The translations under genes and the position numbers were made by a program. Of a DNA stretch of 36,473 nt, positions 6,990 through 32,688 are shown in pieces (position 1 is the first letter of the stretch; each line of letters starts with the position of its first letter). Source of the DNA: a virus (taxonomy: Duplodnaviria; Caudoviricetes); the IMG/VR virus record IMGVR_UViG_3300033067_001710, positions 1 to 36,473 of that record, one strand, 5' to 3'. Under the pieces are notes generated by a model. That model saw nothing but the letters and a program-made list of their open reading frames with translations, made no database searches and was not told the origin of the DNA.

Positions 6990-8536
6990 TACACATCCTC
7001 CAGCACGGCAACTCTGCCAGCCAACTCCGCCAAAATCAGCGACTTCTCAAGCGCGGCGGCAGCCGCGGTCGCGTCCATGTCACGATAGGTATCCACAAGT
7101 TTCGCTTTCAGCTCCTCTTGCCATCCTTCAGTATCTTCCAGATGCATCACGATGTCAATCAGTTTCGCGACGTCTGGACGCAGTGCAGCTGCACCGTCGA
7201 CTCGCGCGCTGTCCGCAAGCCTAGCCACGTAATCCTGCCCGGACACAAATCCAGACACACTTTCCTCTTCGCCTACACCTGCCGAAAGGTGGGCTGAATG
7301 CCCGTGTTTCACGTGAAACATATGGGCCGGTTCGGGCTCGGGCTCGGGTTCTTCTTCATGCACAGGCGCGGGTGGCCCTGCGTCTGTACGCAAAGGCAGG
7401 CCAAATCGTTCGAGTAGCGCTCTCACGTCCAGAGCGGGCTCGACCGCAAGCAGTTTGGCGAGCCCGTCTCCCAGCGTGTTCAGCGTCGAAGCCTCTTTGC
7501 CCAAATCCTCGGGAGGCGCAGTTTCGAACCGAGGCCACGGAGCAAGATTCGTGCCACCGAAGTTCCACTGCGCCCACGGCTGTAGGTAACCATGCGCCCA
7601 TGTGGCTACTTTGCCCGCGTCCAGTTCTAGGTAGTCTTGTCTCACCTTAGACGCAGATGTAGCACCAGTGTTGGCGGATGTAGGCACTTCGGTAGTCAAC
7701 GGTTGACCCAACAGCACAATCGCGAGCCCGGCATTTGCCGTGTCAACGACACCTGCAAACGTTTCCCAAGTGCGGGCCTGAGCTTCCAACATTTCCAGCT
7801 CATACCCGGACGGGAGCACTATTGCAGCGCTTTTTGCCATGACTTTCAGATCATTCCAAAAAGCGCGTCTATCTGATTCCTTGGAGCCTTCAGGAGCCTT
7901 GCCTACAATGGCACCGGACCCGTGTTTTTCGTTGTGCTTCCCCCACCCGCGCAGCCCGTGTAGTTTTATGAGCCACAGGAGCCCACACGCCAGCCAAGCA
8001 CCTTCGGCCCATGGCCGCTTTTTACCGTAAGGCTCGAAAAACGTCCACGTGGGATCGGCGGGATCAACCTCCACCGGGCCTTGCTCCGTCTGCACAATCC
8101 AATGTCGTGTCGTGTAGTCAACAGACAGGAAACGTGGGTGCCACGTCTCAAGGACGGGAATCCAGCGCCCGTTTATATTGGTAGGTATTGCCCTACCATA
8201 TCCTACACCGAGAAACAGACCCCATTGGAGCAATCTGCCCAGCTCCGCCTCCGGAGTAGCATCCCACCAATCCTGTTCGACTGCCTTGAGTACTCGTTTC
8301 GAGTCTGCCTCAAATTCCAGTTTTTCGCTGTTGTTGAGCCCAAGCAGAGCGCCTACACGAGTACTTAGCACCCCATGTATGCGGTCATCTCGCACCATGG
8401 CGTCACAAATGTCTGCTGCTTGCTCCAAAGTCCCAGCGTCCGCAGCTGCGAGCGCAGCCTCCACGTCCCCAGGATACCACGCCGCCGTTGTACTCCATTG
8501 GCTCGGGTCGCGGTAGTATGTAGCCTGTTTTACCAT
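6989..8536 (-). CDS. Portal protein, Mu gp29/DUF935 family
   Basis: 515 aa directly after TerL; MVRDDRIHGVLSTR and AIVLLGQPLTTE segments. Confidence 0.9.
   Translation of the reverse strand: MVKQATYYRDPSQWSTTAAWYPGDVEAALAAADAGTLEQAADICDAMVRDDRIHGVLSTRVGALLGLNNSEKLEFEADSKRVLKAVEQDWWDATPEAELGRLLQWGLFLGVGYGRAIPTNINGRWIPVLETWHPRFLSVDYTTRHWIVQTEQGPVEVDPADPTWTFFEPYGKKRPWAEGAWLACGLLWLIKLHGLRGWGKHNEKHGSGAIVGKAPEGSKESDRRAFWNDLKVMAKSAAIVLPSGYELEMLEAQARTWETFAGVVDTANAGLAIVLLGQPLTTEVPTSANTGATSASKVRQDYLELDAGKVATWAHGYLQPWAQWNFGGTNLAPWPRFETAPPEDLGKEASTLNTLGDGLAKLLAVEPALDVRALLERFGLPLRTDAGPPAPVHEEEPEPEPEPAHMFHVKHGHSAHLSAGVGEEESVSGFVSGQDYVARLADSARVDGAAALRPDVAKLIDIVMHLEDTEGWQEELKAKLVDTYRDMDATAAAAALEKSLILAELAGRVAVLEDV
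7305..7320. promoter_or_regulatory. parS: parS-consensus palindrome 1 (TGTTTCACGTGAAACA), inside the portal gene
   Basis: Perfect 16-bp match to the canonical ParB/Spo0J binding site. Confidence 0.85.
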
Positions 8537-9861
8537 GTGGACGTATATATGTGGCTGCTGTAGGTAGACTGGGGCGCGGCCATGTCAAGCGCGGTCAAAC
8601 CCCACACCAGCGCGTCAACCCTATCCGGACTGTATGTGTCTGACGTTGGATCCCAACTGCACATCTGGTCTTCCAATATGTGCAAACATCCTACGTGGTG
8701 GACGCGCCCTTGTTCGTAGAGGGCCGATATTGGCTCCGCCCGGGTTTGCTTACCTCTACTTGCACGTACTGAGGTGTATGGTATCGTGCTCCGTGCTGTC
8801 CGGAGGTTGGCCTCAACCAGGTCGCCACCGTTGTTGACCTCCGCCACCACACGGTCAGCTCGATTCCGGTCAAATGCCGACACTGCTCGTGCCGCCCATT
8901 GTGCTGGTGTGTAGGTTCCAGACGCGTCATCGAGCACATATCCGTGACCGTCCTCACCTAGCCCTACTACCACTATCCCAGTCTCATCTGAGTGCTCGTT
9001 TGACGACACCGCGGGGTCAATCGCGACCACCACACGCCGGAGCCCGGGTGACTCCGTGCACCGCAGCTTGTCAATCCTGTCTCGTTGCCAAAGCGCGCGT
9101 GGATTGTCTTTCAGGATTTCTGCATTCAGTTCTTGTCTGCCGAGTCTGGTCCCTTCGTAGTTTCGGATAATCTCCCGAAAAAACGCATCTGCCAGGTTGG
9201 CTCTGTTGTCATACGTTGTGCCGCGCGTGACTACAACGTCGCTCCTATTGACAAGCCCCTTGATGACCGGTGTAGGTCTTGGGGTGGTGGTTACCACACC
9301 CTGTGGGTGCTGCCCAAGCCGGAACCCAAACATCAATTGGTCCCAAGCCGCTGGGTACCTCCAAGCCGCCAGCTCGTCCGCCCAAAATGTGTCGCACTGC
9401 GGTCCTCTGAGTCTGTCTGGATTGTCAGCAGAGTACACCGACCCAACGGCCCAATTGGGCCACGTCAACCTACGTTTGGACGGCTCGTAGGTGGGGCGGA
9501 ACCACTTGGGAGCGATTGTAAGCAGCCCGGATTCCCCTTCGAGCATCGTGTCCCGAGCATCCCCGGCTGTTGCTGCGACGAGATTCACGCGCCGGGCCAG
9601 TCCGTCCTCAACCCGACGTTGCACGAATTGTGCGCCCGTCCTAGTTTTGCCAAACCCGCGACCTGCCATGACCAGCCAGATCGTCCAGGCACCGTCGGGA
9701 GGCAACTGGTTGTCACGGGCCACCATCTCTTCCCAATTAGAAGAGAGTCTGGAAAGCTCTTCAGGGTTCAGGCTCTTGAGGTACGTCTGCATCTGCGTCG
9801 GGGAGAACGATGCCAGCAAGTCGCGCAATCTTTTCTGCTTTTTCTCTTGCTGAAGCATCAA
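8530..9861 (-). CDS. terL: Terminase large subunit (start uncertain: 9861, 9858 or 9792)
   Basis: AGRGFGKT Walker A, LRGPQ, WADE Walker B, TTTP, VAIDPA nuclease motif, SPDRVDALVW. Confidence 0.96.
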   Translation of the reverse strand: MMLQQEKKQKRLRDLLASFSPTQMQTYLKSLNPEELSRLSSNWEEMVARDNQLPPDGAWTIWLVMAGRGFGKTRTGAQFVQRRVEDGLARRVNLVAATAGDARDTMLEGESGLLTIAPKWFRPTYEPSKRRLTWPNWAVGSVYSADNPDRLRGPQCDTFWADELAAWRYPAAWDQLMFGFRLGQHPQGVVTTTPRPTPVIKGLVNRSDVVVTRGTTYDNRANLADAFFREIIRNYEGTRLGRQELNAEILKDNPRALWQRDRIDKLRCTESPGLRRVVVAIDPAVSSNEHSDETGIVVVGLGEDGHGYVLDDASGTYTPAQWAARAVSAFDRNRADRVVAEVNNGGDLVEANLRTARSTIPYTSVRASRGKQTRAEPISALYEQGRVHHVGCLHILEDQMCSWDPTSDTYSPDRVDALVWGLTALDMAAPQSTYSSHIYTSTW

Positions 9862-10225
9862 TTGACTTTACCTCGATGAGCGCGCCTTTCGGTCCTCTCA
9901 CTTCAAGGCCCTGCGTTTTGCCCCAACGACGCGCGAAACGTCTTTCCAGCCACCAAGCCGTGGCTTTCCAATCGCTCTTGCCAGCTTCCCTTAGAGCGAT
10001 TATCCCGCTCGTTTCAGCATCGGCAAGGACAAGCTTCACGGCCTTAGCGAATTCAGCGTATACGCCAGATTCTTGCGATTCTGCCGCTTTCATCCATTTC
10101 TGGTATGCACTCCGAGAGATACCTACCGCAGCACATGCCGTCTGGATGTAGCACCCCTGCGCCAAGCGCCTACAGAAGGCGTCTTGCAGTTCGGGCGTAA
10201 GTTTTGTCGGCTTTCTTCGCACCAT
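9761..10225 (-). CDS. terS: Terminase small subunit
   Basis: TKLTPE...ACAAVGISRSAYQKW HTH and WKATAWWLERRF motif; directly upstream of TerL. Confidence 0.85.
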   Translation of the reverse strand: MVRRKPTKLTPELQDAFCRRLAQGCYIQTACAAVGISRSAYQKWMKAAESQESGVYAEFAKAVKLVLADAETSGIIALREAGKSDWKATAWWLERRFARRWGKTQGLEVRGPKGALIEVKSIDASAREKAEKIARLAGIVLPDADADVPQEPEP

Positions 10226-10234
10226 TCCGCTGTC

Positions 10235-10306
10235 TTAAGTGTCGATCGACGCGCTTCCAGGCGGCCAGAGCGACAGGATCTGCTGCAGCATTGGGCGTTC
10301 AGGCAT
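10235..10306 (-). pseudogene. 23-aa stub MPERPMLQQILSLWPPGSASIDT, possible remnant of an S8-peptidase (IetS-like) gene start
   Basis: ATG overlaps the last ATPase codons (ATGCCTGA). MPERP(M/L)L matches my recollection of the N-termini of S8 peptidases that follow such ATPases. Confidence 0.45.
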
Positions 10307-11090
10307 TATCGGTCTCGTTGCTGAGCAGCGGCACAGCAAACCGCTGCGACCACTGTTTGAGTCGCTCATCGACGATCTTGCGAAGATCGGCGTCCGGCAA
10401 ACCGAGGACGTAGCGCCGTTGCACGTCTAGGCCGAATTGCTCGATCTCCGAGAAGCTCAGCCCCTTCAGCTTCTTGGCCAGCGTGTTGGGCGCGATGCCG
10501 AGCTTCGCACCAAGCCGCTCTTCGAACCGTTGGAACCACTCCTGGATCTGCGGTGCTGTTGGTGCAGAGAGCTGCAGTCGAAGCTGAAATCGCCGCCACA
10601 CCGCTCGGTCGAGAAGCTCCGGATGGTTCGTTGCGGTAACCACGACAACGTAGGGCGGCAGAGCGTCCACCTGGAGCAACAACGAGCTGACGACCCGCTT
10701 GATCTCACCCGTCTCGTGGACATCACCTCGTTCCTTGCCGACCACGTCGAATTCGTCGAAAAACAGAACGCATCGCTGGGTGCGAACCTGCTCGAAGAGG
10801 CGCGACAGCCTGACGGCGGTTTCGCCAAGGTAGCTGGCGATCACCGCCTCATAACGAACGACTAGCAACGGCCGGACGAGCTCTCCAGCGAGTGCTTCGG
10901 CCATGGAGGTCTTCCCGTTGCCGGGCGGTCCGGCAAGGAGGATCCTGTGCCGTGGCTCCAGGTTGTGTGCTCGCAGAAGATCCGCGCGATTCTGCTCTTC
11001 GATCACCTCCCTGCACGCAGCAGCGACGGTTTCCGAGAGGATCAGGTGCTCCATGCGCAGTCGAGGCTCGACCTCGTAATAGGCTGTCAT
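10299..11090 (-). CDS. AAA+ ATPase, IetA-like (family normally paired with an S8 peptidase), lacking the usual N-terminal domain
   Basis: GPPGNGKT, SYLGET, LFFDEFD, ETGEIKRVVSSLL, ATNHPELLDRAVWRRF; ATGA-coupled to the upstream gene. Confidence 0.85.
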   Translation of the reverse strand: MTAYYEVEPRLRMEHLILSETVAAACREVIEEQNRADLLRAHNLEPRHRILLAGPPGNGKTSMAEALAGELVRPLLVVRYEAVIASYLGETAVRLSRLFEQVRTQRCVLFFDEFDVVGKERGDVHETGEIKRVVSSLLLQVDALPPYVVVVTATNHPELLDRAVWRRFQLRLQLSAPTAPQIQEWFQRFEERLGAKLGIAPNTLAKKLKGLSFSEIEQFGLDVQRRYVLGLPDADLRKIVDERLKQWSQRFAVPLLSNETDNA

Positions 11091-11440
11091 TCGACGCGAC
11101 TGTCAGCTTTTTTAGCGGTTTTGCGACAGGATTCCGAGCAGTAGCTCGGTGGCCTCCCTCGGTTGACAAGCCAGGTAAAGTTCTCCCCGCATATCTTGCA
11201 AGTCCTGCGCCAATACATGTCTTTGATTTCCATCTTTATTGCCCTTTTCGCCCTAATCCATTCCCTTTGGAGCTTGCGGACTCGTTCCGGGCTCCGAGCC
11301 CGGTCCTCAGCCGCCCATTTCCGTTGTGCTTCCCTCCGCCTACATGACCGTATCTCTAACCACAGATGCCACGTCTCCACACCTATCCCGTGCTGGGAGT
11401 CGACGAACTCTTGTAGGATGCCCTCATACATGTCTAGCAT
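11087..11440 (-). CDS. Basic zinc-finger protein
   Basis: CKICGENF...GRPPSYCSESCR; start at 11440 or 11431. Confidence 0.7.
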   Translation of the reverse strand: MLDMYEGILQEFVDSQHGIGVETWHLWLEIRSCRRREAQRKWAAEDRARSPERVRKLQREWIRAKRAIKMEIKDMYWRRTCKICGENFTWLVNRGRPPSYCSESCRKTAKKADSRVE

Positions 11441-11975
11441 ATGTGCCAACGTCTGCCGTAATGTATGCGAAGGTGGCAGCTGCAAGAGCCGCACGGGCCT
11501 CTGCCATGATCATCGCTAGCAGTGCCGTTTTGCCAGTGCTCGGGTTGCTGGTTGAGGTGCTCGCCAGCCATAGCAACCACGTTGCGACCGACGCAACTGA
11601 CTTCCGTCTCGATTTTGACAACTTGCCAACTCTTTTTGCCATATTGGCAATCTCGCGGAACGTGAGCTGCGCAGTCGGCGATTCAGCGGCTAACGCCAAA
11701 CTCACATTACCATACATTGCGGTGCTGCTGTACTGCAGTTCTAGCGCGCGGTGGTGGTGCTCGTCCAACATCCGCAACCGGGCCACGATGGCTCTATCCC
11801 TTTCCGCGCTTTCCATTATATAGTGAGTTATGGAGTCGTCTGGGTTTCCGCTGCGACTGCAATTAGATACCCCATCGGCCAGCAACGCAAGCTGCCCACC
11901 AAGCGCAGACCTCAACCCCAGAGCACATTCCGCTGCTCCGCCGAAATGCCAACGGAGATCATCTTCGGGCGTCAT
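11424..11975 (-). CDS. Hypothetical protein, possibly a late-transcription regulator
   Basis: GAGG RBS and ATGA coupling. RLRMLDEHHHRALELQY is reminiscent of Q/sigma-region-4-like phage regulators; function is inference. Confidence 0.55.
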   Translation of the reverse strand: MTPEDDLRWHFGGAAECALGLRSALGGQLALLADGVSNCSRSGNPDDSITHYIMESAERDRAIVARLRMLDEHHHRALELQYSSTAMYGNVSLALAAESPTAQLTFREIANMAKRVGKLSKSRRKSVASVATWLLWLASTSTSNPSTGKTALLAMIMAEARAALAAATFAYITADVGTYARHV

Positions 11976-12640
11976 TTGCCGAGCAATCTCCTCAACCTAC
12001 CCACCACCCCTGCCTCATGTTTCACGTGAAACATGTCAGCTGGATCGAACTCCAGCTTTTCCTTGTATTCGCTGAATAGTGACACGACAGCTTTGCTGTA
12101 TTCCTCTACACGTGCAGTAAAATAGCCAGCGCGCTTGAGTTGCGCGACGAACGACACAGGATCCCCTGTCTCCAGATCAGGCCAGGCCCGCCCGTAGCGC
12201 GACCTCAACACCCGCAGATATGCAGCTGCACCTTCGTCTAAAGTCCGGAAAGCCTGGAACCGTGTGGCAGTGTGGCTTGGGTGCAGACGCACAGTTGCAA
12301 AGCCAGCTTGCGTCGACGTGATCTCCACGTCATCACCTGGACGCCCGTCCGTTCGTGGTTGAGACTCTGCCAGCCATCGAAACGCCGTACTCCGGAGCAC
12401 AAACTCAGACGTGGACCGACAGAAGTGCTCGCCATCCCACTTGTCTGTTGCCTTGGTTCCTCCAAGGTTGTAATTCCAGCAATGCTGCCACCTACCAGTC
12501 TCGAGAGCGCTCTGCGCCAGCAACACGAGCAAAGCATTGCGCGTCGGGACTGCCCCCTCCTGTGCGTACCATGCCCTACACAGCGCACGAGCTAGCAGTC
12601 TGGGGTTTACCTCCGTCCTGATAGCAGTAACCTCGCTCAT
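11972..12640 (-). CDS. Putative endolysin, glucosaminidase/GH73-like lysozyme fold
   Basis: LAQSALETG, NYNLGGTKA, FQAFRTLDEGAAAY and GYFTA motifs. Confidence 0.75.
   Translation of the reverse strand: MSEVTAIRTEVNPRLLARALCRAWYAQEGAVPTRNALLVLLAQSALETGRWQHCWNYNLGGTKATDKWDGEHFCRSTSEFVLRSTAFRWLAESQPRTDGRPGDDVEITSTQAGFATVRLHPSHTATRFQAFRTLDEGAAAYLRVLRSRYGRAWPDLETGDPVSFVAQLKRAGYFTARVEEYSKAVVSLFSEYKEKLEFDPADMFHVKHEAGVVGRLRRLLGK
12018..12033. promoter_or_regulatory. parS: parS-consensus palindrome 2, inside the 3' end of the lysin gene (palindrome extends 12016-12035)
   Basis: catgtttcacgtgaaacatg. Confidence 0.85.
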
Positions 12641-12678
12641 GCTGCTACCATGCCATATGTGCTGGGCACATGCAACAC

Positions 12679-12714
12679 AAAAAGTTGAGGCCCGGGAGGA
12701 GGGGCCCGGGCCTC
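12679..12714 (-). terminator. Intrinsic terminator-like hairpin in the leader of the leftward transcript
   Basis: 10-bp stem gaggcccggg/cccgggcctc (12687-12696 and 12705-12714) followed by AACTTTTT on the minus strand. Confidence 0.65.
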
Positions 12715-12751
12715 GGAGCCGAACCATGGAGGAGTTGACGTAGCTACACAC

Positions 12752-12780
12752 AGTATATTAATGGCAACTAATGTAGTCAA
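12752..12780 (-). promoter_or_regulatory. Sigma70-type leftward promoter
   Basis: TTGACT-17 bp-TATACT on the minus strand. Confidence 0.8.
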
Positions 12781-12791
12781 GCCTGTCATGC

Positions 12792-12842
12792 AAAAAAAAA
12801 CCTGCCCAGTCCCTTGACATACGTACATACGGTTCGTATTGT
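12792..12842 (+). promoter_or_regulatory. Sigma70-type rightward promoter with an A-tract UP element
   Basis: A9 tract at 12792-12800; TTGACA (12814)-17 bp-TATTGT (12837). Confidence 0.8.
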
Positions 12843-12878
12843 TGTAGTACCATCAACAAGATGGTGATTGGAGACGAG

Positions 12879-13064
12879 ATGATCAGAACCGAGGGCCTCA
12901 GACCAAATCAGCTGCTACAGGAGTACCGAGACGAGCTCCGCTACGCCTCAACCGAGCATGCTCGTATCAGGCGTATATACCGCAAAAACATCTACGGGGA
13001 GCTCGTGTTGCAAAAACGAGCCCTACTGGAAGACTTTGCCATGGAGGTGCAATATGACTACTGA
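12879..13064 (+). CDS. Hypothetical early protein
   Basis: GGAG RBS; first gene after the promoter. Confidence 0.65.
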   Translation: MIRTEGLRPNQLLQEYRDELRYASTEHARIRRIYRKNIYGELVLQKRALLEDFAMEVQYDY

Positions 13065-13302
13065 TCTGCAAGATCTGGAAGACCTGGGAAACATCCCGTC
13101 GGGAATGGTCATGGCACGCGCACTCTGCGCTGTCGGGAGACGCTCACAATTTGTGCGTGCGGTGCTCAAAGCCATACTTGCCGAACGAGTCGCTCTACAA
13201 CAAGCAGGAGTTCGAAACGATGATCCCGCTGTCCTCGCGTTTGACTCGGCCTACCTTGCCGTACTTGAGTGGGCCTATGGCCCAGGCAGTGAGGACAAGT
13301 GA
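13054..13302 (+). CDS. Hypothetical early protein
   Basis: GGAGGT RBS before ATG 13054 (MTTDLQDLE). Confidence 0.7.
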   Translation: MTTDLQDLEDLGNIPSGMVMARALCAVGRRSQFVRAVLKAILAERVALQQAGVRNDDPAVLAFDSAYLAVLEWAYGPGSEDK

Positions 13303-13589
13303 GCGAGCTGGCTCGCCTCATCTGGCGTGACGCCGTGTCTGGAATCCTGTTTGAGTACATCCCACACTGGCCGCGTCACGCAGCTCGCGTAAGTGCGGCT
13401 GTGTGGGTCTACAACAACGTTGCAATGGCACAACGTGCCCTGTGGGACATGTCCAAGGATTGCAACGATATTCGCATACTGCTACTTTACGGCTTTGCCA
13501 CCATGCACCTAGTGCCCGGTGGGTATCGCCCATCCTACGCTGAGTTGACCAGTTTCGTAAAAACAATGGAGAAGACACAATGCGAATAG
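13299..13589 (+). CDS. Hypothetical early protein
   Basis: GAGG RBS, GTGA coupling. Confidence 0.65.
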   Translation: MSELARLIWRDAVSGILFEYIPHWPRHAARVSAAVWVYNNVAMAQRALWDMSKDCNDIRILLLYGFATMHLVPGGYRPSYAELTSFVKTMEKTQCE

Positions 13590-13807
13590 ATATAGAGATC
13601 CCATCCTTCGGGTGCCCCGTGTGTGGCTTCGGCATAGAGCAGGGCATATGTGTGCTCTGCAACCCACAGTGCGACTGCGGTCGGGCCATACGCGCCCGCG
13701 TTTTCGCGGCGTCGTTTGACGACTCTCCCACCATAGATGACACCATAGATGACACCACCCTCGATGAGCCCACGATCCCCGAAATACAACCCTGGGAGAT
13801 CTACTGA
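13580..13807 (+). CDS. Small Cys-rich acidic protein
   Basis: GGAG RBS; CPVC, CVLC, CDC; TIDD repeat. Confidence 0.65.
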   Translation: MRIDIEIPSFGCPVCGFGIEQGICVLCNPQCDCGRAIRARVFAASFDDSPTIDDTIDDTTLDEPTIPEIQPWEIY

Positions 13808-13932
13808 TGGGTGCCATGTGGCTCCAATGGGAGTTGTGCATCGCGGCCAGCGTCATTGCGGGCCATATCAACGTCGCGAGCGAATTGTGCGACTTTTACG
13901 TCGCCTGGTTTGTAGAAAGGAGTTGGCATTGA
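13807..13932 (+). CDS. 41-aa ORF absent from the ORF track (MGAMWLQWELCIAASVIAG...)
   Basis: TGATG overlap upstream and TTGA overlap downstream. Confidence 0.55.
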   Translation: MGAMWLQWELCIAASVIAGHINVASELCDFYVAWFVERSWH

Positions 13933-14105
13933 AACGTAACGTCACATTGTCACTGGACGATGCAGTCCTAGACGGTCTGGCCATCCTGGCTGGCGACGAC
14001 TGCATCCCGCGTAGCCACGTTGTCGCACAACTGGTAACAGCCGAACTCGCACGGCGCGAAGCAGCGACCGCGCACACACACACACCAGACCCAGCCAATG
14101 GGTGA
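13929..14105 (+). CDS. Ribbon-helix-helix (CopG-like) regulator
   Basis: AAAGGAG RBS before TTG; KRNVTLSLDDAVLDGL...PRSHVVAQLV pattern. Confidence 0.75.
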   Translation: MKRNVTLSLDDAVLDGLAILAGDDCIPRSHVVAQLVTAELARREAATAHTHTPDPANG

Positions 14106-14654
14106 GTAAACTTTTACGCACCTAACTCCCCACTTCCGCAACGGCTATACCCACACAAACCGTAATGATTCTGCCCACTTGGTGGTGCATGTGCAATCGC
14201 GCGCGCGCAACTGCGTAAACTTTTACACACCAACCGCGTATCCCACTTCGCACCTTCGCACCGCGTGGCGCGACCACCATGAGCGGTTCGATGTGGTCTG
14301 CTGTTCCTGACCCCAACCTCCCCAACCTCCTGACGAAACTTTAAAAGTAGTTTGCACGCACGCGTGCGTGCAAACAACTCACAACCTTTTCTATAACCCC
14401 CCAAAGGTTGGGAACAGTTGGGAACAGGGTGTTTCCCAGCCGTTTTTGGCTCCGGAACCCGTTCCCAACGCCGATCCCAACCACCCACATGGTCCCGACC
14501 TCGGACCCAAAAAGGTTGGGATTCGCGGGTGCTAGTGGCGTTCATTCTCCAGTATTAAGGCTTTGACAGATATCGGACATTAGGATTGTGCTGGAAATGT
14601 GTGCGTATGGGTGTTCCCAACGCACCTTGTCCCCGTCCGTGCTTTTGAGCGGAT
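14106..14654. other. Probable replication origin / repeat-rich non-coding region
   Basis: Multiple CCCAAC/GTTGGG units in both orientations, a 26-bp perfect palindrome at 14350-14375, and a GTAAACTTTTAC direct repeat; lies just downstream of the primase/helicase genes. Confidence 0.55.
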
Positions 14655-16355
14655 TTACTGATTAGGTAGGTAATATCGCCAGATGTTTGCTCCGTCGATT
14701 CGCCGTCGCTTGCGGACCCAACCGAGCGATTTCATGGCCGTCGCGACCCTCATCTGGTCAAACCTGGTTTGCCGGCCGGGTTCGATGCTGAGCGCGTCCC
14801 CGAGAATGTCCGCGACCGACACCCCTTCGGTGCCGATATCATCCGGCCGTAGGGGGTTGGCGAGCCATGCCGCCAGTATCTCAACCCATGGGTCACCGTC
14901 CGCACGCCGCTCGTCCTGCTGCTCGGCAGCCGCCGCTTCAACTGCCGCGTCGACGAACCACCACTTTTGACCACCACGGTACAGGTGTACTGCCTCTGCC
15001 CATATCTGGTCACGGTCCTTGCGCAGCGCGTCAAGAGCTATATTCCCGCAAGCCACGGGAAGAAACCGCCGGCCGCCCGTCGCGTCCATAAGATACATGT
15101 CATCATTTGTAGTGCCTGCGCACACACAGCGACGGGGGTGGTCTTCCTTCAGCTTGGCGTATGGCGCCCTATATGTGTCAGTTTGTCGCACAAGAAACGC
15201 CTTGACGTTGCGCACGTCGGCCCGCGCAAGGCCAGTTAGCTCAGGCAACTCAACCAGCCACGCGCCTTGGATGCCGAGCAGCGTGTCCTTGTTTTGCAGG
15301 TTAGCAAGGTCAACGGAATCATACCACGTGCCAGGAACACCGCTCGCAAGGATGGAAACCGCTGACGATTTGCCTAGTCCTTGCGGACCCTCCAAGACGA
15401 TGGCCTGATCAGCCTTGCATCCTGGGTCGTAGGTCCGCGCCACGGCGGCTACAAGCCAGCATACCGATGCCTCCCGTAGGTACGCAGCGTGCTGCTCGTC
15501 GCGCGCCGGAGCCCCCAGATACGCCTCGGCAAACATGCGCACACGGGACATGCCGTCCCACACCAGGCTGTCAAGGTAGTCTCGCACTGGGTCGTAGCGA
15601 TGCCTCTCCACAGCAGCCAATATTCCAGCATCTACATAATTCGCCGGGAAGTCAAGTTCGTACTCGCGCTCTACGTAGGTGCGTGTCCGCCGAAGGTCTC
15701 CATCGGCAAGAGGACGGGGGAACGTCTTGCTACCACCGTCAAAATCCGTGCCAGCCCACGGAGGCTCGCGCATAATCATCGGAATACTAGACCGCTCATT
15801 GAAAGCGAAAAGACGCTCAAGTGCAGGATCGTTTAGAACGATTGTCTCAGCATTGCCAAGAGTCTTGCGTATCGCACCTTTGTATGTGCAGAGCAGCAGA
15901 TCGCGCCATGTGCCATCTTTGACTACCTCTGCTTTGGTGGCAACAGCATGGCGATCAGCACGGTCCAGATCGCGAGAACGTGTCGCGGTCGGCACATCGA
16001 AGCCGAACCGGAGCCCGATTTGGCGCAGCGCCTCAACCGGTTTGATGTGCTGGTGTGCGCAGACCACGTCGATGACCGACCTGTAACCATCCCGGCCCTC
16101 CGTCTGGCACCTGTTGTGGTAGCACTTGATACCGTTCGCACTTGGTGGAATCCTGGCGTCTTTCTCCCCACACCCTGGGCACTGGACGTGGGCTCCGTTG
16201 ACCTCGAGCCCGAGCCAGGACACAATGTCTGCAATAGGCACATCGTTCGCACGTTTCCATACATCGCCGCTCCCTCCGTTGGTTGAACGTTTTTCCGCAG
16301 TAGCTTTAGGCTTATTCTCCGGAAACATCGTTTCCACAATTTTTAGAAGTGTCAA
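14655..16355 (-). CDS. VapE/VirE-family helicase with an N-terminal zinc-binding domain (start TTG 16355, or ATG 16370/16328)
   Basis: CPGC...CYHNRC, LVWDG, PGCKAD, LEGPQGLGKS, DTYRAPYA, GTTN, DATGGRRF, RDQIWAEA. Confidence 0.9.
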   Translation of the reverse strand: MTLLKIVETMFPENKPKATAEKRSTNGGSGDVWKRANDVPIADIVSWLGLEVNGAHVQCPGCGEKDARIPPSANGIKCYHNRCQTEGRDGYRSVIDVVCAHQHIKPVEALRQIGLRFGFDVPTATRSRDLDRADRHAVATKAEVVKDGTWRDLLLCTYKGAIRKTLGNAETIVLNDPALERLFAFNERSSIPMIMREPPWAGTDFDGGSKTFPRPLADGDLRRTRTYVEREYELDFPANYVDAGILAAVERHRYDPVRDYLDSLVWDGMSRVRMFAEAYLGAPARDEQHAAYLREASVCWLVAAVARTYDPGCKADQAIVLEGPQGLGKSSAVSILASGVPGTWYDSVDLANLQNKDTLLGIQGAWLVELPELTGLARADVRNVKAFLVRQTDTYRAPYAKLKEDHPRRCVCAGTTNDDMYLMDATGGRRFLPVACGNIALDALRKDRDQIWAEAVHLYRGGQKWWFVDAAVEAAAAEQQDERRADGDPWVEILAAWLANPLRPDDIGTEGVSVADILGDALSIEPGRQTRFDQMRVATAMKSLGWVRKRRRIDGANIWRYYLPNQ

Positions 16356-17032
16356 AACAACACCCTCCATGGTACGGTTTGTGTCGCAGCCCGGATAATC
16401 CGTGTTTCTCGGTGTGGGCGTTCGGGTGTGTCCGCACCCTTGCACTTACGTGTACCGAAGAGTGGAACAAGCCGGCTCGGGTTGTGCACGGTGGTGTCGA
16501 TGGCGGGGCCGAAACCCCGCGCTAACGCACCGAGCAACGCGCGGTAGCCAGCCTTCAACTCCGAAGTGTCGGCAGACTGCTCACATGAGACGAAGATAGA
16601 CCACCCATTACCAGACATACCTACAGACGTAGCCTCCTTGCCCACCACAGGAATCAGGATATCAAGGACTTTACGGGCAATGACCTTGGCAGCCTCAAGC
16701 TCCGCATCCGTTGCCGAGATACCGGAGGGCCGCTGGGCATCGACATCGATATACAGCACACGTCTCGCGACGATATCCCCATCAGACGCACGTCCGGCCG
16801 TTGCTCGCACCCATTCTCCCAGCACACCATACCGGGCCGTTATGGCTGCGTTTATGCGCCCAGAACAGATATAGACACCAGAGTAGCCAGGCTGACCACT
16901 TGCTAGCGCTCCGCAGCGCTCGATGTCCTCTGCTGCGCAATAGCACACCATGATCGGATTAGTCTTGCTTGACGGCAACGCGACCAACTCGACTATTTCG
17001 CCATGACAGATTTGAAGAGCTTGTCGGAGCAT
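16352..17032 (-). CDS. Putative AEP-type primase/polymerase domain protein
   Basis: YIDVD, MSGNG and D...NPSRLVPLFGTRKCKGADTPERPHR motifs. Confidence 0.7.
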   Translation of the reverse strand: MLRQALQICHGEIVELVALPSSKTNPIMVCYCAAEDIERCGALASGQPGYSGVYICSGRINAAITARYGVLGEWVRATAGRASDGDIVARRVLYIDVDAQRPSGISATDAELEAAKVIARKVLDILIPVVGKEATSVGMSGNGWSIFVSCEQSADTSELKAGYRALLGALARGFGPAIDTTVHNPSRLVPLFGTRKCKGADTPERPHRETRIIRAATQTVPWRVLF

Positions 17033-17457
17033 GTATGATGTCTTCCCTTTCTACCACACAATGCGCAGACCTCTGATTGACACACCCCCAATGGATCACA
17101 CTCTGTACCGCAGTCGCACACGCCAGCCCACTCCGCGACCCACTCATCAACCGCTGCAAGAGCAGCCGCCACGCTGCGCACGGTTACGACGATTCCACCC
17201 CCGTACTCCCTAATTCGATGCGCCCATTGTTTCTGCTCTTTCGAGAGCCGCCCAGTATCCGTCTTCACCTCGATACCTACAAACCGACCATAAACGCATC
17301 CAATGATGTCGGCACTGCCGATACCACATCCTCCGAATACATACCCACCCCCTGGTAGCTTTTGCCGTACTACAGAGTTTCTCATAAACACGCAACCTGG
17401 TCTTGCCCCGATTGCAGCCAGTATCTGTGACTGCAGAATTGACTCTCGGTTAGCCAT
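16993..17457 (-). CDS. VRR-NUC domain nuclease with a C-terminal Cys-rich tail
   Basis: ESILQSQI, GSADIIG, IEVKTDTGRLSKEQKQW. Confidence 0.9.
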   Translation of the reverse strand: MANRESILQSQILAAIGARPGCVFMRNSVVRQKLPGGGYVFGGCGIGSADIIGCVYGRFVGIEVKTDTGRLSKEQKQWAHRIREYGGGIVVTVRSVAAALAAVDEWVAEWAGVCDCGTECDPLGVCQSEVCALCGRKGRHHTCSDKLFKSVMAK

Positions 17458-18751
17458 GGCTCCATTTCCATTCCGGTTTTTCGCCATAAAGTGAATAGTA
17501 ACGATGAAACGCCCATCCGCGCCTGTATCCACGCTTCTTGGCGATATATAAAAAGTCTAGAAAACGTTGTTTTTTGGTATCGTCGGTTTGCCGAGCGCGC
17601 CGGCTCACGAGCGCGAGGTCTGTGGCTCTGACGACGGGTGGTGGCGGGGGGGGCCACGGGGCCCCGCACCGCACGCATACCAGACCACCTGTGCGCTGTA
17701 TGGCCCCGCACTGCTTGCAGGTACGCGTCCCCAACGCAGACTTGGTGCCCCGCCTGATCGCCTTGCCGCTCAAACTGTATTCCCGGTCCTCGTCTGGCAA
17801 TCCGTGCTCATGCACGCACCCAACGAGATCGATTACCGTGACATGAGATTTGCCGGGGGCGGGGCGAAGTCCGCGCCCAACCATCTGTAGGTATATGCCG
17901 GGAGTGCTCGCACCGCGGGCCAGAATGACCGTCTCGATGCCCGGACAATCGTAACCCTCCGTCAGGACGTAGACATTTGTGAGGACACGTAGGCGCTTGT
18001 CGGCGAACGCGTCCAATGCAGCGGCCCGGACCTCAGCAGAGCATCCCCCGTCGACGCATGCCGCCTCAACCCCAGCACCAGAAAAACGCATTGCCAAATC
18101 ATTGGCATATGCCACATTTGGACAAAACACAAGCGTTTGGGTACCTGGAGTGCGCTGTTGATACGCGTCCAGCGGGTCAAGAGCTAGCTGTTTGCGTTTG
18201 GTTTCCGGGGCAAAAACGTGCGTCGGAACCAAGTGCCCTGCCTCGATCAGCTCTCTCGGTTGCGCGACCACCACCAACGCGCCAAACACGTCGTCCAAGG
18301 CCCTACCATCGCCCCGCGATGGGGTTGCTGTAAGCCCCAGGATGGTCGATGTGCGGTAGTGCTCAGCAATCGTGTGCCAGCCCGATGCCGCCACATGGTG
18401 ACACTCATCCCATATCACCACAGTTGCGGGAGGAAGGGAACCCCTTGCCACCAACGTGTCCACGCTGGCTACTTGGACGGGAATGTTAGGCTCCGACTTC
18501 GCCCACGGTGCTACGATGCCAGCCGGCACTCCAAACATGGAGAGTTTGGATTGCGCTTGACGCAGCAACTCAGCACGGTGCGCGACCCACAGTACCCTAC
18601 CACCACGTGCGACAGCCGACCGAGCTAGCTCGCTCGCAATGACCGTTTTCCCAGACCCCGTGGGAGATACCAGGCACACGGACCTTGCACCCTGCCGGTA
18701 CGCCTCGCGCGCGCGCTCGATGGCCCTGGACTGGTAATCTCTCAGCTGCAC
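17450..18751 (-). CDS. Superfamily-2 DExH helicase with a C-terminal zinc finger
   Basis: LRDYQ, SPTGSGKT, DECHH, GLTATP, LTEGYD, QMVGRGLR, CxxC-CxxC. Confidence 0.95.
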   Translation of the reverse strand: MQLRDYQSRAIERAREAYRQGARSVCLVSPTGSGKTVIASELARSAVARGGRVLWVAHRAELLRQAQSKLSMFGVPAGIVAPWAKSEPNIPVQVASVDTLVARGSLPPATVVIWDECHHVAASGWHTIAEHYRTSTILGLTATPSRGDGRALDDVFGALVVVAQPRELIEAGHLVPTHVFAPETKRKQLALDPLDAYQQRTPGTQTLVFCPNVAYANDLAMRFSGAGVEAACVDGGCSAEVRAAALDAFADKRLRVLTNVYVLTEGYDCPGIETVILARGASTPGIYLQMVGRGLRPAPGKSHVTVIDLVGCVHEHGLPDEDREYSLSGKAIRRGTKSALGTRTCKQCGAIQRTGGLVCVRCGAPWPPPPPPVVRATDLALVSRRARQTDDTKKQRFLDFLYIAKKRGYRRGWAFHRYYSLYGEKPEWKWSHG

Positions 18752-18767
18752 GGTTCGACCCTCGGCA

Positions 18768-18977
18768 TCACTTCGTCTCCCTCAGTACCGATTGGATCGC
18801 AACGTCGAGGGCATCCGCCAGTGCGACAACAATCGAGGCACGCGGGTCCGTGATAACCCCCGCTTCAATGCCTTGCACGGTTGACGCCGGTATCCCAGAT
18901 TCACGCGCCAGCCGACGGATCGACCATCCGAGTGCGAGCCGCTCCTCTCTGATCTTTTTACCTACACTTTTTGCCAT
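18768..18977 (-). CDS. XRE/Cro-C1 family HTH regulator (69 aa)
   Basis: IREERLALGWSIRRLARESGIPASTVQGIEAG...LADALDV. Confidence 0.92.
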   Translation of the reverse strand: MAKSVGKKIREERLALGWSIRRLARESGIPASTVQGIEAGVITDPRASIVVALADALDVAIQSVLRETK

Positions 18978-19062
18978 GTACAACCCATGGGTCGCTATAG
19001 GGGCGTTGTCAAGATGTTTTGGGCTTGACAGGCATACAGACACGACCCATAGGTTGTACATG
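18975..19062. promoter_or_regulatory. Symmetric divergent promoter/operator region
   Basis: 20-bp inverted arms (18975-18994 and 19043-19062, 1 mismatch) around back-to-back TTGACA hexamers (19007-19012 minus, 19025-19030 plus). Confidence 0.7.
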
Positions 19063-19078
19063 CAGGGAGAAAAACCAG

Positions 19079-19447
19079 ATGCAAACCGAAACGCTAAGAC
19101 GAGTGATCGAGTTACTGGAGAGCGAGACTCCGACGGACGCATGGAGGATTGTGTGTGCCCTCGCCGCCACTTTCGAGCCGTCCACATTGCCTTTCGCACA
19201 GCATGTGGGTGTGCAATCAGATGTGCGCAAGAATTCCGATCGCAGAGAAGGATGTGATAGGTTGTACAAGGTTGTTACTGAGGAATGGCAACCGACTAGC
19301 AAGCTCCGTGCCATGTTTCCGCAATGGGCGGCCGGCGCCATCAGTGGCAGGTTGTGCTATCTACACAGACAAGGGCTTATAGAGAAAAAACAGGAATTCG
19401 GTATGAGTATGTGGAGGCGACGAGGAGGTAGTCATGATTGTCTCTAA
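19079..19447 (+). CDS. Hypothetical protein with a winged-helix-like C-terminus
   Basis: GGAG RBS; AISGRLCYLHRQGLIEKK...WR pattern. Confidence 0.65.
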   Translation: MQTETLRRVIELLESETPTDAWRIVCALAATFEPSTLPFAQHVGVQSDVRKNSDRREGCDRLYKVVTEEWQPTSKLRAMFPQWAAGAISGRLCYLHRQGLIEKKQEFGMSMWRRRGGSHDCL

Positions 19448-20258: not shown

Positions 20259-20493
20259 TAGATACATGCGCGGAGCGGACATGACCGGCGAGATCCACAC
20301 AGGCGCAAAAAAGATGAAAAGAACGAAAAGAATGTCCTCGTTTACACTATCAGACGAAGCGCGCGCCCTGCTCACAGAGCAGGCCAAACGTGCGCGCATG
20401 ACCAAAACTGGGTGGTTGGAGTTTCTGTTGCTGAGCATGGCAGTTGCTGACCAGACCCCACCGACACGACAACCGCCAGACCCGACCTCGTAA
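20245..20493 (+). CDS. Ribbon-helix-helix-like regulator
   Basis: KRMSSFTLSDEARALLTEQAKRARMTKTGWLEFLL. Confidence 0.7.
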   Translation: MTTCSRYMRGADMTGEIHTGAKKMKRTKRMSSFTLSDEARALLTEQAKRARMTKTGWLEFLLLSMAVADQTPPTRQPPDPTS

Positions 20494-21057: not shown

Positions 21058-21258
21058 ATGAAAAACACGGAGATATATTTCGAGGTAGGCGACCACGGCG
21101 TCCAGATGTGCGACGCAGCCATCCTTAATGATGGCACTATTCTTGCATTCGGTAAACTGTGGGAATCGCTTGACGCAGTGCGCGGGCCGGGGAGAATCAT
21201 CGCGACCGAACTCCTCACCGAGCGCAATCCTCAGGCATGGCGCGTTGCGACATTTTGA
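21058..21258 (+). CDS. Hypothetical protein (66 aa)
   Basis: TAAGGAG RBS before ATG 21058. Confidence 0.7.
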   Translation: MKNTEIYFEVGDHGVQMCDAAILNDGTILAFGKLWESLDAVRGPGRIIATELLTERNPQAWRVATF

Positions 21259-21794
21259 CCATCCCACGGGATGGTCCAACCTTTCCCCTTGCACCACCCC
21301 CAAATCGCCCGCGAATCCAGCAAATGCTTTCCGGATACTGAGTGCAAAATGCGCTTTCTCTTGGATATCATCTGATATCCAGTTTTTTTACTGACCTGCC
21401 CTCCGTCGATGCTAGTGACTACATCACCATCTATGTCAACAATTGTCAGAGCATGCGTCGACGCACCAGTCCCGATTATCACCAAATCACCAACCTCAGG
21501 AGATAACCCATGAGCCGTATTTTGCCAGCACCCAGCGCGCTGGGCTCCGCTCACCAGCCGAGATATCGCAGTGCCGATCTTGTAAGGCTTATAGAGGCAA
21601 GGTAGGTCTACACCTACATGCCGGAGAATGCCCCCGGCGACCAACCCGCAGGTCCATGTTTTTTTGAGATCCCATTGGGAGCCGGCCGGTGGCTGTCCGA
21701 GCACATACTCCCACATGCTGCGGTGGTCTGGGTTGCCACCGTCCAAGCCTTCCAGACTTAACGCAAATTTGACAATGTTGTCAATATGACTCAT
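21231..21794 (-). CDS. CHAP/NlpC-P60-like cysteine hydrolase, candidate second lysin
   Basis: WTCGLVA...PEVGDLVII...THALTIV...SIDGG Cys-His arrangement; ATGA coupling. Confidence 0.65.
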   Translation of the reverse strand: MSHIDNIVKFALSLEGLDGGNPDHRSMWEYVLGQPPAGSQWDLKKTWTCGLVAGGILRHVGVDLPCLYKPYKIGTAISRLVSGAQRAGCWQNTAHGLSPEVGDLVIIGTGASTHALTIVDIDGDVVTSIDGGQVSKKTGYQMISKRKRILHSVSGKHLLDSRAIWGWCKGKGWTIPWDGQNVATRHA

Positions 21795-22075
21795 CGACAC
21801 AACTCCGCAGTCTCGCAATCCCCCGACAACTCTATGCAAAAAAGAGGCCAATTCAGCCCGTTGCTCGCAGCTGCTGTGCAGACGGCTGTGCAGTCCGCGC
21901 CGTTGGCCGTGGGGTGCCCAAGCAAACACCCCATGTCCTGTAAGTGCTGACACGACGTGTAGCATGTGGGGTCAAGCTGCGTTGGATACGGTGTAGCTTC
22001 CGGCAATGCAGGTACAGTCTGCTGATTGCACGACATGGTCATGTACGCTCCCAGGATGTAAACCATTCTGCTCAT
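21791..22075 (-). CDS. Cys-rich putative lipoprotein
   Basis: Short signal-like N-terminus ending MTMSC; multiple Cys; coupled on both sides. Confidence 0.55.
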   Translation of the reverse strand: MSRMVYILGAYMTMSCNQQTVPALPEATPYPTQLDPTCYTSCQHLQDMGCLLGHPTANGADCTAVCTAAASNGLNWPLFCIELSGDCETAELCR

Positions 22076-22872
22076 GTTGAAAACCTTTGGGCTTTTACCG
22101 TGTAGATATCAGAAACCATGGAAGACCCGAAAAGATTCGGAGAGACCCAGGCCAGACCTCTATCCCCCCAACCTGCCCCCCACCAGTTATCAACGAGCAC
22201 TCGACCGTCTGCCTCGACTCCGAGGACAGACATCATGTGCCCACCCAAAATCTGGCTGGAGTTGATGCGCTCGATGGTCGCTGTCCCGACATGATTGCAA
22301 AACGCATCGTCAACGTAAATGCCAAAAATCACGGGGAGACGATTGCGCAGTGCAGTTGCAACGTCAGCAACTCGGACCCCCTCGGTGGTGTCGATGCGCG
22401 AGTATTCAAACCCTCTCTGGTCAAACGCAGCGCGTTGCTGTTTGGGCCATGGTGCGAGCACTGTGTTGGTTGACTCAACAACCAGATCGAGCCATTCCGC
22501 ATCGACCGACCGGCACATGCCCATCGCACGGACGGCATCCATGGCGAGGCGCGGATAGCAACCTCGATCTGTGTACTCTGTTGGTGCTTTGCTGTGCCGG
22601 GCAGACTCTTGAGCGAGAGCGATCGAGTACGCCCACGCGGGGGATGGGTCGGGGACATCGACTTGGCCTTGAAGGGCGAGCGAGATCTGCCATGCGCGGG
22701 CGATTGCACACCCGACACACGATTGACCCAGTTGCGTGATCTGTTTGCCGCGCCACGGTAGATGGTTTGGTTGTTGTAGTTGAGTTGCGGGAGATGCCCC
22801 TGCAAGACCGCGGGCCAACGGCCAATCACGGCCATCGGGATAGTCAACGCGCCAACCGAGCTTGCGGATCAT
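22072..22872 (-). CDS. Papain-like (C1 family) cysteine peptidase
   Basis: GGAGG RBS; LGWRVDYPDGRD, Q...SCVGCA, GGHMMSVLG, DNWWGAGWGDRG. Confidence 0.85.
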   Translation of the reverse strand: MIRKLGWRVDYPDGRDWPLARGLAGASPATQLQQPNHLPWRGKQITQLGQSCVGCAIARAWQISLALQGQVDVPDPSPAWAYSIALAQESARHSKAPTEYTDRGCYPRLAMDAVRAMGMCRSVDAEWLDLVVESTNTVLAPWPKQQRAAFDQRGFEYSRIDTTEGVRVADVATALRNRLPVIFGIYVDDAFCNHVGTATIERINSSQILGGHMMSVLGVEADGRVLVDNWWGAGWGDRGLAWVSPNLFGSSMVSDIYTVKAQRFST

Positions 22873-22874
22873 TG

Positions 22875-23813
22875 TCAACCTCCTGGGAGACAGTGGGGTG
22901 AGAACCAAATGCGTTCGAGCCTGCGGTTGTGTCCTGTTTTTGCATAACCGAGGCCTTGGACCCATTCGACGGGCTTCCACTCGGGGGGAAACTCAAATGT
23001 CCCCTCATGCCCGCAGTACGCGATGCGGTAGTTCGGATCATCGCCATGCGCGACCGACCACGAATGGGCGCGAGCGGCAACGTCCTCGGCATCATGGGTG
23101 TACAAAGCATCCCGCAAATCGTGCGAGTAGGGCGGATCGAGAAACACCGCGGTGGGTTTGGCGATGTGCGTTGTTGGCGATGGCCCGAGTACGCGCTCGA
23201 AATCACCACAGCAAACACGGACGCGCTCAAGTCGTGAGGCCAGGTCGCAAAACCAGTCAAGGATCGGACCTACCTTGCCCGCGTCACCGAGGTGCGGCCG
23301 TTTACGGTTGACACCATGGCCCGCGGTGCCAAGGTGCGGCAGTTGCCGGTTGACACCCTTGCCACGTATCCAATCGAACCCATCCTCGCTTGCGACCCAT
23401 GGGCCCTCCCCGCTACACCATCCGCGTCCAATCCAACAGCAGATCCCCCACACCCACCACCCAGCGATTTTGGCATCGTAGTAGTCGGGGTCGGATTGGA
23501 CCTTGATAGGCTTGTAATCGAGCAACCATAGGTGACGTGCTGATAGGTCCGCTTCATTGACGGGTTGCGCGGCCCAATGTGCAGTCTGCTCTGGATCATG
23601 TTGGATGGCTCGCCAAAAATTGGCGATATAGCTGTCGATGTCGTTGACCGTCTCAACACCCCAGGGCGGAGGCCGGCGAAGCAACACCGCGCCGCCACCA
23701 AAAAACGGCTCAATGTAGTTGCGGACAGATCCGAACCTTGCCCAAACAAGTCCCGCGGCCTTGCGCTTGCCGCCGAACCATGGAAATGGTGTGTCCAGCA
23801 TCATTGCGGACAC
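22875..23813 (-). CDS. DNA adenine methyltransferase (Dam/D12-like)
   Basis: PFPWFGGK, YIEPFFGGGAVLL, ETVND, VFLDPPY. Confidence 0.92.
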   Translation of the reverse strand: MSAMMLDTPFPWFGGKRKAAGLVWARFGSVRNYIEPFFGGGAVLLRRPPPWGVETVNDIDSYIANFWRAIQHDPEQTAHWAAQPVNEADLSARHLWLLDYKPIKVQSDPDYYDAKIAGWWVWGICCWIGRGWCSGEGPWVASEDGFDWIRGKGVNRQLPHLGTAGHGVNRKRPHLGDAGKVGPILDWFCDLASRLERVRVCCGDFERVLGPSPTTHIAKPTAVFLDPPYSHDLRDALYTHDAEDVAARAHSWSVAHGDDPNYRIAYCGHEGTFEFPPEWKPVEWVQGLGYAKTGHNRRLERIWFSPHCLPGG

Positions 23814-24046: not shown

Positions 24047-24063
24047 GCCAAATGTCTTGAGGC

Positions 24064-24091
24064 AAAAAAACCGCCCGGTCAAGACGGGCGG
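24064..24091 (-). terminator. Intrinsic terminator
   Basis: ccgcccg/cgggcgg stem followed by T7 on the minus strand, just after the stop at 24106. Confidence 0.85.
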
Positions 24092-24105
24092 CTCGAATGT
24101 TTGAG

Positions 24106-25811: not shown

Positions 25812-25817
25812 GTGCGG

Positions 25818-32019: not shown

Positions 32020-32660
32020 GGGTCTGCGCTTGTCGCTTTTTCAGTTTCGTAGAACTTCTTCTCGATCTCAGCATCCGTCAACCCAGCAGCCGCGTCGACT
32101 AACCCGAGCCCAGGTGGAGCACCTGTGTTGAATAATCCGTCTTTTATATAATCCGGTTCATTCCGCCACAACCAGTCCCGAGCCATTTCGCTACGAGTAG
32201 GCGTAGTCGATGTGCTCTTTTTCGGCACCTTTGGAGCAGGACGCCATTCAGTGATCTTTATCTTCACTTCACGTGTTTGCGGGATACTTCCATCTTGTGG
32301 CAAAGATACCTCTTCAACATAAACAGAATTGATTCCGTGGAGCGCCAAAACCGGGTGAACGACGTCAACCGGGGACAACTTGCCCTTGTGCGTCACTGGA
32401 TTGATGATAGGTAGAATCTCCTGATATTGCTCCCAATGGTATTCTGTCCACATTATCAGGGCTAGCTCTATCTCGGCTGCGTTGGCACCATCATCGGTGA
32501 TTGTCGCACCATCAGCCCCCTTGGCGTTCTTCTTGTCCAGCTTTCTCGACAATGTTCCTGCAATGCGGACAATGCCAGGGAGCTTTATCCCTGCAAGTGT
32601 ACACGTGTCATACAGGTGTGGAGCAGCAGTCCAGTGTGGTATCCCGGCAATCGCACTCAT
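32016..32660 (-). CDS. Tail tube initiator / baseplate hub-associated protein
   Basis: Directly after tape measure; LAGIKLPG, GADGATITDDG, VVHPVL, TEWRP. Confidence 0.65.
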   Translation of the reverse strand: MSAIAGIPHWTAAPHLYDTCTLAGIKLPGIVRIAGTLSRKLDKKNAKGADGATITDDGANAAEIELALIMWTEYHWEQYQEILPIINPVTHKGKLSPVDVVHPVLALHGINSVYVEEVSLPQDGSIPQTREVKIKITEWRPAPKVPKKSTSTTPTRSEMARDWLWRNEPDYIKDGLFNTGAPPGLGLVDAAAGLTDAEIEKKFYETEKATSADP

Positions 32661-32672
32661 GTGTCACACCAG

Positions 32673-32688
32673 TGTTTCACGTGAAACA
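32673..32688. promoter_or_regulatory. parS: parS-consensus palindrome 3, in the 28-bp gap after the tape-measure stop
   Basis: TGTTTCACGTGAAACA. Confidence 0.85.

Follow-up and report, generated by a model that had tools for sequence, protein, structure and literature searches.

The genome considered here, the IMG/VR record IMGVR_UViG_3300033067_001710 from a virus of the Caudoviricetes (Duplodnaviria), was analysed over its whole stretch of 36,473 nucleotides (the window). Three copies of the 16-bp palindrome TGTTTCACGTGAAACA lie in it, at 7305-7320, 12018-12033 and 32673-32688, and letter for letter they equal the parS consensus of bacterial chromosomes. They are found inside a portal gene, at the 3' end of a lysin gene and in the gap that follows a tape measure gene. 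The features on which the argument depends are listed below.

7305..7320, unstranded: parS site 1, inside the portal gene, read as MFHVKH on the gene strand, in a hypervariable linker
12018..12033, unstranded: parS site 2, near the C-terminus of the lysin, where it also reads MFHVKH, part of a larger 20-bp palindrome and ~0.72 kb downstream of the predicted late promoter
32673..32688, unstranded: parS site 3, in the 28 bp that separate the tape-measure gene from the next one, its first base directly following the stop codon
6989..8536, minus strand: Mu-like portal protein, which bears site 1 (PF06074, E 4e-42)
11972..12640, minus strand: glucosaminidase-family endolysin, which bears site 2 at its 3' end (PF01832, E 2e-7; look-alikes in the Atlas)
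12687..12780, minus strand: predicted late promoter (TTGACT-17-TATACT, by likeness to the consensus only) with a strong terminator-like hairpin after it, both ahead of the lysin gene
32689..34653, minus strand: tape measure protein, with site 3 after its stop (PF20155 and PHROG tape-measure families)

The initial annotation had reported three exact copies in three contexts (portal, lysin and tape-measure spacer), each trailed by a T. The copies were recovered at these places, the gene map agrees with the three contexts, and the next base on the + strand is T in 3/3 cases. None of 100 dinucleotide shuffles contained any match to TGTTTCACGTGAAACA, and Markov models of orders 0-4 predict 3e-6 to 2e-5 copies in the genome, in line with the naive expectation of ~1e-5 per copy that had been put forward. 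A scan of the genome allowing up to 3 mismatches revealed no degenerate copies beyond the three exact ones. Neighbouring sites are separated on the circle by 4.7, 20.7 and 11.1 kb. The canonical chromosomal identity proposed for the palindrome is supported by PMC7383237, where the same 16-mer serves as consensus parS and where 17/17 ParB orthologs from various clades are reported to prefer it over the Noc site in vivo in E. coli. The three copies thus match the chromosomal type in being 16-bp palindromes identical to the consensus, but not in their place, as chromosomal parS lie near the oriC of a parAB-bearing chromosome and these lie on a phage genome without parAB.

Sites 1 and 2 are read in one shared frame and both encode MFHVKH. 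The site 1 peptide is missing from 15/15 aligned portal homologs, whose alignment is gap-rich in this block, and the site 2 peptide is missing from 7/7 aligned lysin homologs, in which this tail is variable. Since the peptide is missing from the homologs and the third copy is intergenic, a function of MFHVKH at the peptide level is rejected. Given the codon use of the phage, the probability that both coding copies take exactly the palindromic codons is ~0.005, which argues that the constraint acts on the DNA. The selection on DNA suggested in the initial annotation is therefore supported both by this codon choice and by a number of sites far beyond chance, and it is very likely that the sites are real and selected. 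The alignments and the gene map show them at spots that the proteins appear to tolerate (a linker, a variable tail and a gap). Sites 1 and 2 are further alike at 14/23 bases on one flank (null ~5e-4 per comparison over 12 comparisons, uncorrected for the shared reading frame), a hint that one may have been copied from the other by internal duplication; the flanks of site 3 are unrelated to both. Site 3 also makes a 10-codon mini-ORF (32657-32689, minus strand), which overlaps the tape-measure stop at one end and the start of the next gene, with its own stop, at the other, an arrangement that may preserve translational coupling.

Sites 1 and 2 are contained in a single 7,981-bp contig of a public run, and site 3 in a single 8,603-bp contig of the same run, in both cases with zero differing letters. 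An assembly artefact is rejected on these grounds; as this run is a possible source of the genome record, the contigs count against a join artefact and are not independent support. A second public run holds only fragments of the genome, none of them listed over any parS site, and no RNA dataset is present among the listed holders of the sequence. Position 21512 is a C in both public runs and a G in the genome record.

The statement that the genome has no recognisable ParA or ParB withstood a search of the whole genome, in which ParB_N (PF02195), TIGR00180, AAA_31, tyrosine integrase and resolvase had zero matches at E<=1. Likewise, the ORFs without assigned function gave no ParB-like match. 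As neither ParA nor ParB is matched, the genome does not correspond to a plasmid-prophage with its own partition system. An AAA gene at 10299-11090 was considered as ParA and rejected, because it is IetA-like (PADLOC E 4e-129). This orphan AAA ATPase gene lies on the minus strand between the lysis genes and the small terminase, is ~70 N-terminal residues short and encodes a protein 70% identical to a Paraburkholderia plasmid protein; its S8 protease partner was not found in the genome. According to PMC5006074, IetA is the antitoxin to IetS, and the IetA-like gene may thus serve in counter-defence or be a remnant of captured DNA.

The same site is common among viruses. The exact 16-mer occurs in ~5,700 IMG/VR stretches (an estimate from 2/64 parts), whereas two control palindromes of the same composition occur in 4 and 8 stretches, which makes the parS 16-mer ~700-1,400 times commoner in viral contigs. 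ParB_N was found in 0/49 of the IMG/VR carrier records searched (from the first 55 of 139 loci), so the carriers are mostly not host origin fragments, and a tyrosine recombinase was found in 2/35 carrier records picked for size or completeness. As in the present genome, T is the commonest base after the viral sites (189/316 flank reads). Of 50,697 GenBank phage records, 289 are matched by a 32-base query with site 2 at its centre and 330 by one around site 3, and a control 32-mer matches 0; these counts include imperfect rows that are not parS and probable host-contaminated Listeria records, while sites with other flanks escape such queries. The leading GenBank carriers are Microbacterium, Clostridium, Listeria, Bacillus, Gordonia and Arthrobacter phages and microviruses. 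The query that matches 289 phage records matches 34/72,556 records of natural plasmids, some of them chromosome-sized, in a collection that differs from the phage one in host make-up.

All of 14 cultured records picked by hand for their diversity have the site within one mismatch. One of them, the Listeria 'phage' OR846716.1, has, in addition to six sites, two ParB-family genes at a distance of 3 kb from each other, and is probably host origin DNA; it was left out, and the 30-34 Listeria rows among the GenBank matches are suspect. The 13 remaining carriers have at least two sites in 9/13 cases, no ParB_N in 10/13 and no tyrosine or serine recombinase in 10/13. None of their sites is annotated as parS in the GenBank stretches examined. 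Vibrio phage phi 3 (NC_028895.1, T5-like) has two parS-type sites per terminal repeat (821 and 2934), one of them between A1 and A2; Spiroplasma phage 4 has one exact site, and bajarodino virus genomes of ~6 kb show 10-12 BLAST places, which corresponds to some 5-6 sites. The hosts of many cultured carriers belong to genera without endospores, and spore entrapment is therefore not the general reason for the presence of the site.

We infer that the genome is circular and essentially complete because the tail-sheath gene, which is split over both ends of the record, reads through them to give a 565-aa protein whose residues 1-563 align at 55% identity to a relative. Two observations count against this: the sheath junction shows a 2-residue alignment gap, which weakens circularity, and the record has a linear classification and a CheckV completeness of 64%, so that completeness is our reading of the ends. 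The genes for the head and packaging comprise a Mu-like portal, gpF, a protease, the capsid and the terminase, and are accompanied by a contractile tail. Besides the glucosaminidase lysin, the genome encodes a VapE-type primase-helicase, an SF2 helicase, a VRR-NUC protein, an ERF protein, a Dam-family methylase and one XRE regulator. No MuA or MuB transposase was found among the 59 ORFs scanned, and a 'transposase' row at E 0.008 turned out to be the helix-turn-helix (HTH) of the small terminase. The phage is thus not a transposable Mu-like phage, its likeness to Mu being limited to head and neck genes. Plasmid-type Rep initiators were not recognised in the ORF scans. Nor is there a stack of other host sites: in a search for such motifs, the genome has one DnaA-box-like match and no CtrA or dif match. 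Three TGTCGAA heptamers (Spo0A-type) are scattered over the genome, two of them in the duplicated ERF tail, and Spo0A-type control is not evident. In that tail, towards the C-terminus of the ERF annealing protein, 213 nt are duplicated in tandem (93%; 19806-20231, plus strand); shorter duplications are found across the decoration/capsid gene boundary (54 nt, 96%, 3834-3941) and in the methylase (42 nt, 23277-23360). Far from the lysin, after holin-like membrane genes, lie a papain-like C1 peptidase (Atlas) and an unassigned Cys/His-containing ORF (21231-22872, minus strand).

The phage proteins that might themselves bind the palindrome are few. The XRE regulator and its surroundings are as follows.

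18768..18977, minus strand: phage XRE/HTH_3 regulator, a candidate DNA binder (PF01381, E 2e-12)
18975..19268, unstranded: control region between divergent genes, whose inverted repeat comprises CATGTACAACC at 18975 and the complement at 19052, with a third, 9-base copy at 19260; unrelated to parS

The inverted repeat at 18975 overlaps the start of the XRE gene and is likely to be its operator. A 183-aa protein (11424-11975, minus strand) belongs to a family without a name that has 55 further representatives and weakly resembles sigma region 4 (E 0.03-0.05); as it adjoins the promoter-terminator pair at 12687-12780, it is a candidate late activator. A 69-aa ORF (20284-20493, plus strand) is predicted to form an extended segment and two helices, a model compatible with a ribbon-helix-helix regulator, and its single fold match is a VapB antitoxin at E 6. 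The predicted folds of two candidate regulators are uninformative, with pLDDT of 67 and 41 and no match in the PDB at E<=0.001; the fold of the 183-aa protein, predicted from its single sequence, is of poor quality.

The relatives of the genome are distant and of little help regarding the sites. A single-protein scan with the portal gave no close relatives, the best portal homologs being at most 62% identical; as a hint of the host, the portal is nearest to those of Meiothermus phages (36%) and Myxococcus Mx4 (35%). In 160 capsid- and portal-related loci (2.42 Mb) there is one parS site, with 2 mismatches. Of the 211 loci gathered through their capsid, portal, terminase or lysin, 99 records of distant relatives were picked, mostly for closeness or length; most of them are fragments. 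Four of these have a single variant site each and 0 have a perfect or repeated site, compared to 1/99 for a control pattern. The parS sites therefore look lineage-specific.

Regarding the host, one cluster of lysin look-alikes is mostly bacterial and its commonest phylum is Myxococcota (the phylum being known for 12/55 members), which provides a weak hint that the host may belong to this phylum. A related phage contig was binned in a Planctomycetales metagenome-assembled genome. In genomes of the phylum of the latter, the portal matched 4/301 and the lysin profile 1/401, and no spacer-like perfect match to bases 1-18000 of the phage genome appeared in 279 genomes, so that a host of this phylum gains no support. 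The neighbour genes of the lysin relatives include no lineage marker. No observation points to an endospore-forming host.

It is very likely, to judge from the letters of the sites, that a host ParB binds all three of them: an identical site is common to unrelated phages and bacterial chromosomes, which argues that the protein reading it is a host protein. In that case, host ParB-CTP clamps would load at the three phage parS sites and spread from them, and, with sites 4.7, 11.1 and 20.7 kb apart, they would presumably coat much of the circle; ParB spreading over 16 kb is reported for V. cholerae (PMC7022226). Host ParA and SMC could then treat the phage circle as an origin region and position the phage genomes, and, if lysis is delayed, phage copies would pass to daughter cells or to dormant ones. 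Positioning or partitioning of the phage DNA in a transient carrier state seems the likeliest use of the sites, a proposal that stands at about an even chance; once ParB binding is granted, the balance tips slightly in its favour relative to the alternatives discussed below. Several considerations weigh against it. It is not obvious why a small lytic genome would need segregation, and the carrier state is itself hypothetical. The sites are dispersed, whereas chromosomal parS cluster near oriC. The relatives provide no conservation argument. A myxobacterial host would sit slightly awkwardly with the consensus site, as the parS of M. xanthus differs from it (TGTTCCACGTGGAACG in the table of PMC7022226).

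Other explanations start from the same observations. The late region contains all three sites and the early genes contain none, and site 2 is ~0.72 kb from the predicted late promoter, so that spreading host ParB might instead brake late (lysis and virion) transcription and tie lysis timing to the CTP/ParB state of the host, without moving the DNA. In P. aeruginosa and S. pneumoniae, ParB is indeed reported to repress some promoters nearby, but in B. subtilis and V. cholerae its local effect is reported to be small (PMC7022226). Moreover, the late region amounts to ~77% of the genome, which gives 3/3 a P of ~0.45, no site overlaps a promoter, and other phages have sites among early genes, as Vibrio phage phi 3 does in its left terminal repeat. 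Promoter-like sites in this genome are not above shuffles (10 vs 7.9 +/- 2.4). Such a brake is accordingly an unlikely main use. The phage could also be a temperate plasmid-prophage, a stable episome kept by host ParABS, as would befit the lack of an integrase match, the XRE regulator with its candidate inverted-repeat operator between divergent genes and the circular assembly. Nevertheless, headful packaging also predicts a circular assembly, no plasmid-type Rep initiator was recognised, and the site is rare on natural plasmids relative to phages (with the difference in host make-up noted above); a stable episome is rather improbable. If instead replicating phage DNA titrated host ParB and SMC loading, thereby upsetting host segregation or division to the benefit of the phage, three sites on tens of genome copies would exceed the one to ~20 sites of a chromosome (range from PMC10197239), and ParB is listed as essential in several diderms (PMC7022226 table). 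Yet a sponge would favour many clustered sites, where this genome has three and no near-copies, and no clear benefit is apparent within one short lytic cycle, which makes titration improbable.

The very small genomes that carry the site (Spiroplasma phage 4 and other microviruses) would be accounted for if ParB clamps or ParB-loaded SMC marked phage DNA as chromosome-like and shielded it from host defence or nucleases, and the site in the terminal repeat of a T5-like phage would suit this explanation as well, this repeat being the part that enters the cell first. No such mechanism was found in the literature searched, however, and shielding is given as low a probability as titration. A reader encoded by the phage would be at hand in two or three candidate DNA binders (the XRE protein, the 69-aa ORF at 20284-20493 and the ORF at 11424-11975), but the sites lie inside or between late genes rather than at promoters, the candidate operator of the XRE protein is a different sequence, the family of the 11424 protein weakly resembles sigma region 4 rather than ParB, and the site is common to unrelated phages; it would be surprising if one of these proteins were the binder. 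It is even harder to believe that the sites are unselected, whether by chance, as host-origin scrap copied within the genome, as a peptide motif or as an assembly artefact. The flank likeness of sites 1 and 2 does hint at internal duplication, but site 3 is intergenic with unrelated flanks, all three copies are free of mismatches, both coding copies use palindromic codons against a chance of ~0.005, the sites lie inside long contigs, and no host-origin genes are present.

Positioning of the phage DNA by host ParB would add this genome to the phages that apparently co-opt the centromere of their host, which the sampled relatives in its virion lineage do not do. More interesting than the genome alone is the breadth of host-type parS across viruses. 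Spore entrapment, the sole published explanation found, cannot apply to the cultured carriers of non-sporulating hosts. A broader proposal can be made only tentatively: borrowing of the ParB-CTP clamp may be a general and repeatedly evolved strategy of phages without integrase, independent of sporulation, in which perfect parS are gained in tolerant spots of genes and host ParB/SMC positions, carries or shields the DNA; the present genome would then be an independent acquisition in a Mu-like-head myophage lineage with a possibly myxobacterial or other diderm host. If true, this would provide a molecular basis for carrier-state or delayed-lysis infection, or a new role of the ParB clamp on foreign DNA, and the cultured carriers make the class-wide question testable. 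A published survey of host-type parS across phages was not found in the literature searched, which excludes most subscription papers.

The closest published parallel is phi29, which has five parS and a Spo0J-dependent segregation into the prespore (PMC2731898); together with its relatives Nf and B103, it uses host parS through host Spo0J for spore entrapment (PMC2731898, PMC9437464). The link between phi29, host parS and spore entrapment drawn in the initial annotation agrees with these sources. The strategy as such is published for phi29 (PMC2731898). Both phages have several dispersed host-type parS and no phage ParB, and in B103, as here, a parS site lies inside the endolysin gene. Unlike phi29, a protein-primed podophage, the present phage has a Mu-like head, a contractile tail and a primase-helicase module, and shows no sign of an endospore-forming host. 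As regards its cis sites and the lack of a phage ParB, it would thus function as phi29 does, though entry into spores is not indicated.

With the chromosomal ParABS systems (parS, ParB-CTP clamp, ParA and SMC loading), the genome shares a 16-mer identical to the consensus (PMC7383237), with the trailing T that is also favoured among the viral sites. It differs from them in having no parA or parB on the replicon and in the dispersal of its sites over a 36-kb circle rather than around an origin. As in plasmid-prophages, phage DNA carries partition sites and no integrase, but plasmid-prophages encode their own ParA and ParB and have their own centromere sequence, and this genome has neither gene. 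P1 and N15 are plasmid-prophages of this kind, with their own parABS. Mycobacterial extrachromosomal prophages with their own parABS are also described (PMC7157519). The genome finally resembles the cultured carriers Arthrobacter phage JasmineDragon, Gordonia phage Harambe, Glutamicibacter phage Voltaire, Butyrivibrio phage Arian, Vibrio phage phi 3 and Spiroplasma phage 4, which hold 1-5 exact or one-mismatch sites, mostly with no ParB match. Their virion and replication genes are nevertheless unrelated to those of the present genome, whose acquisition of parS is apparently independent.

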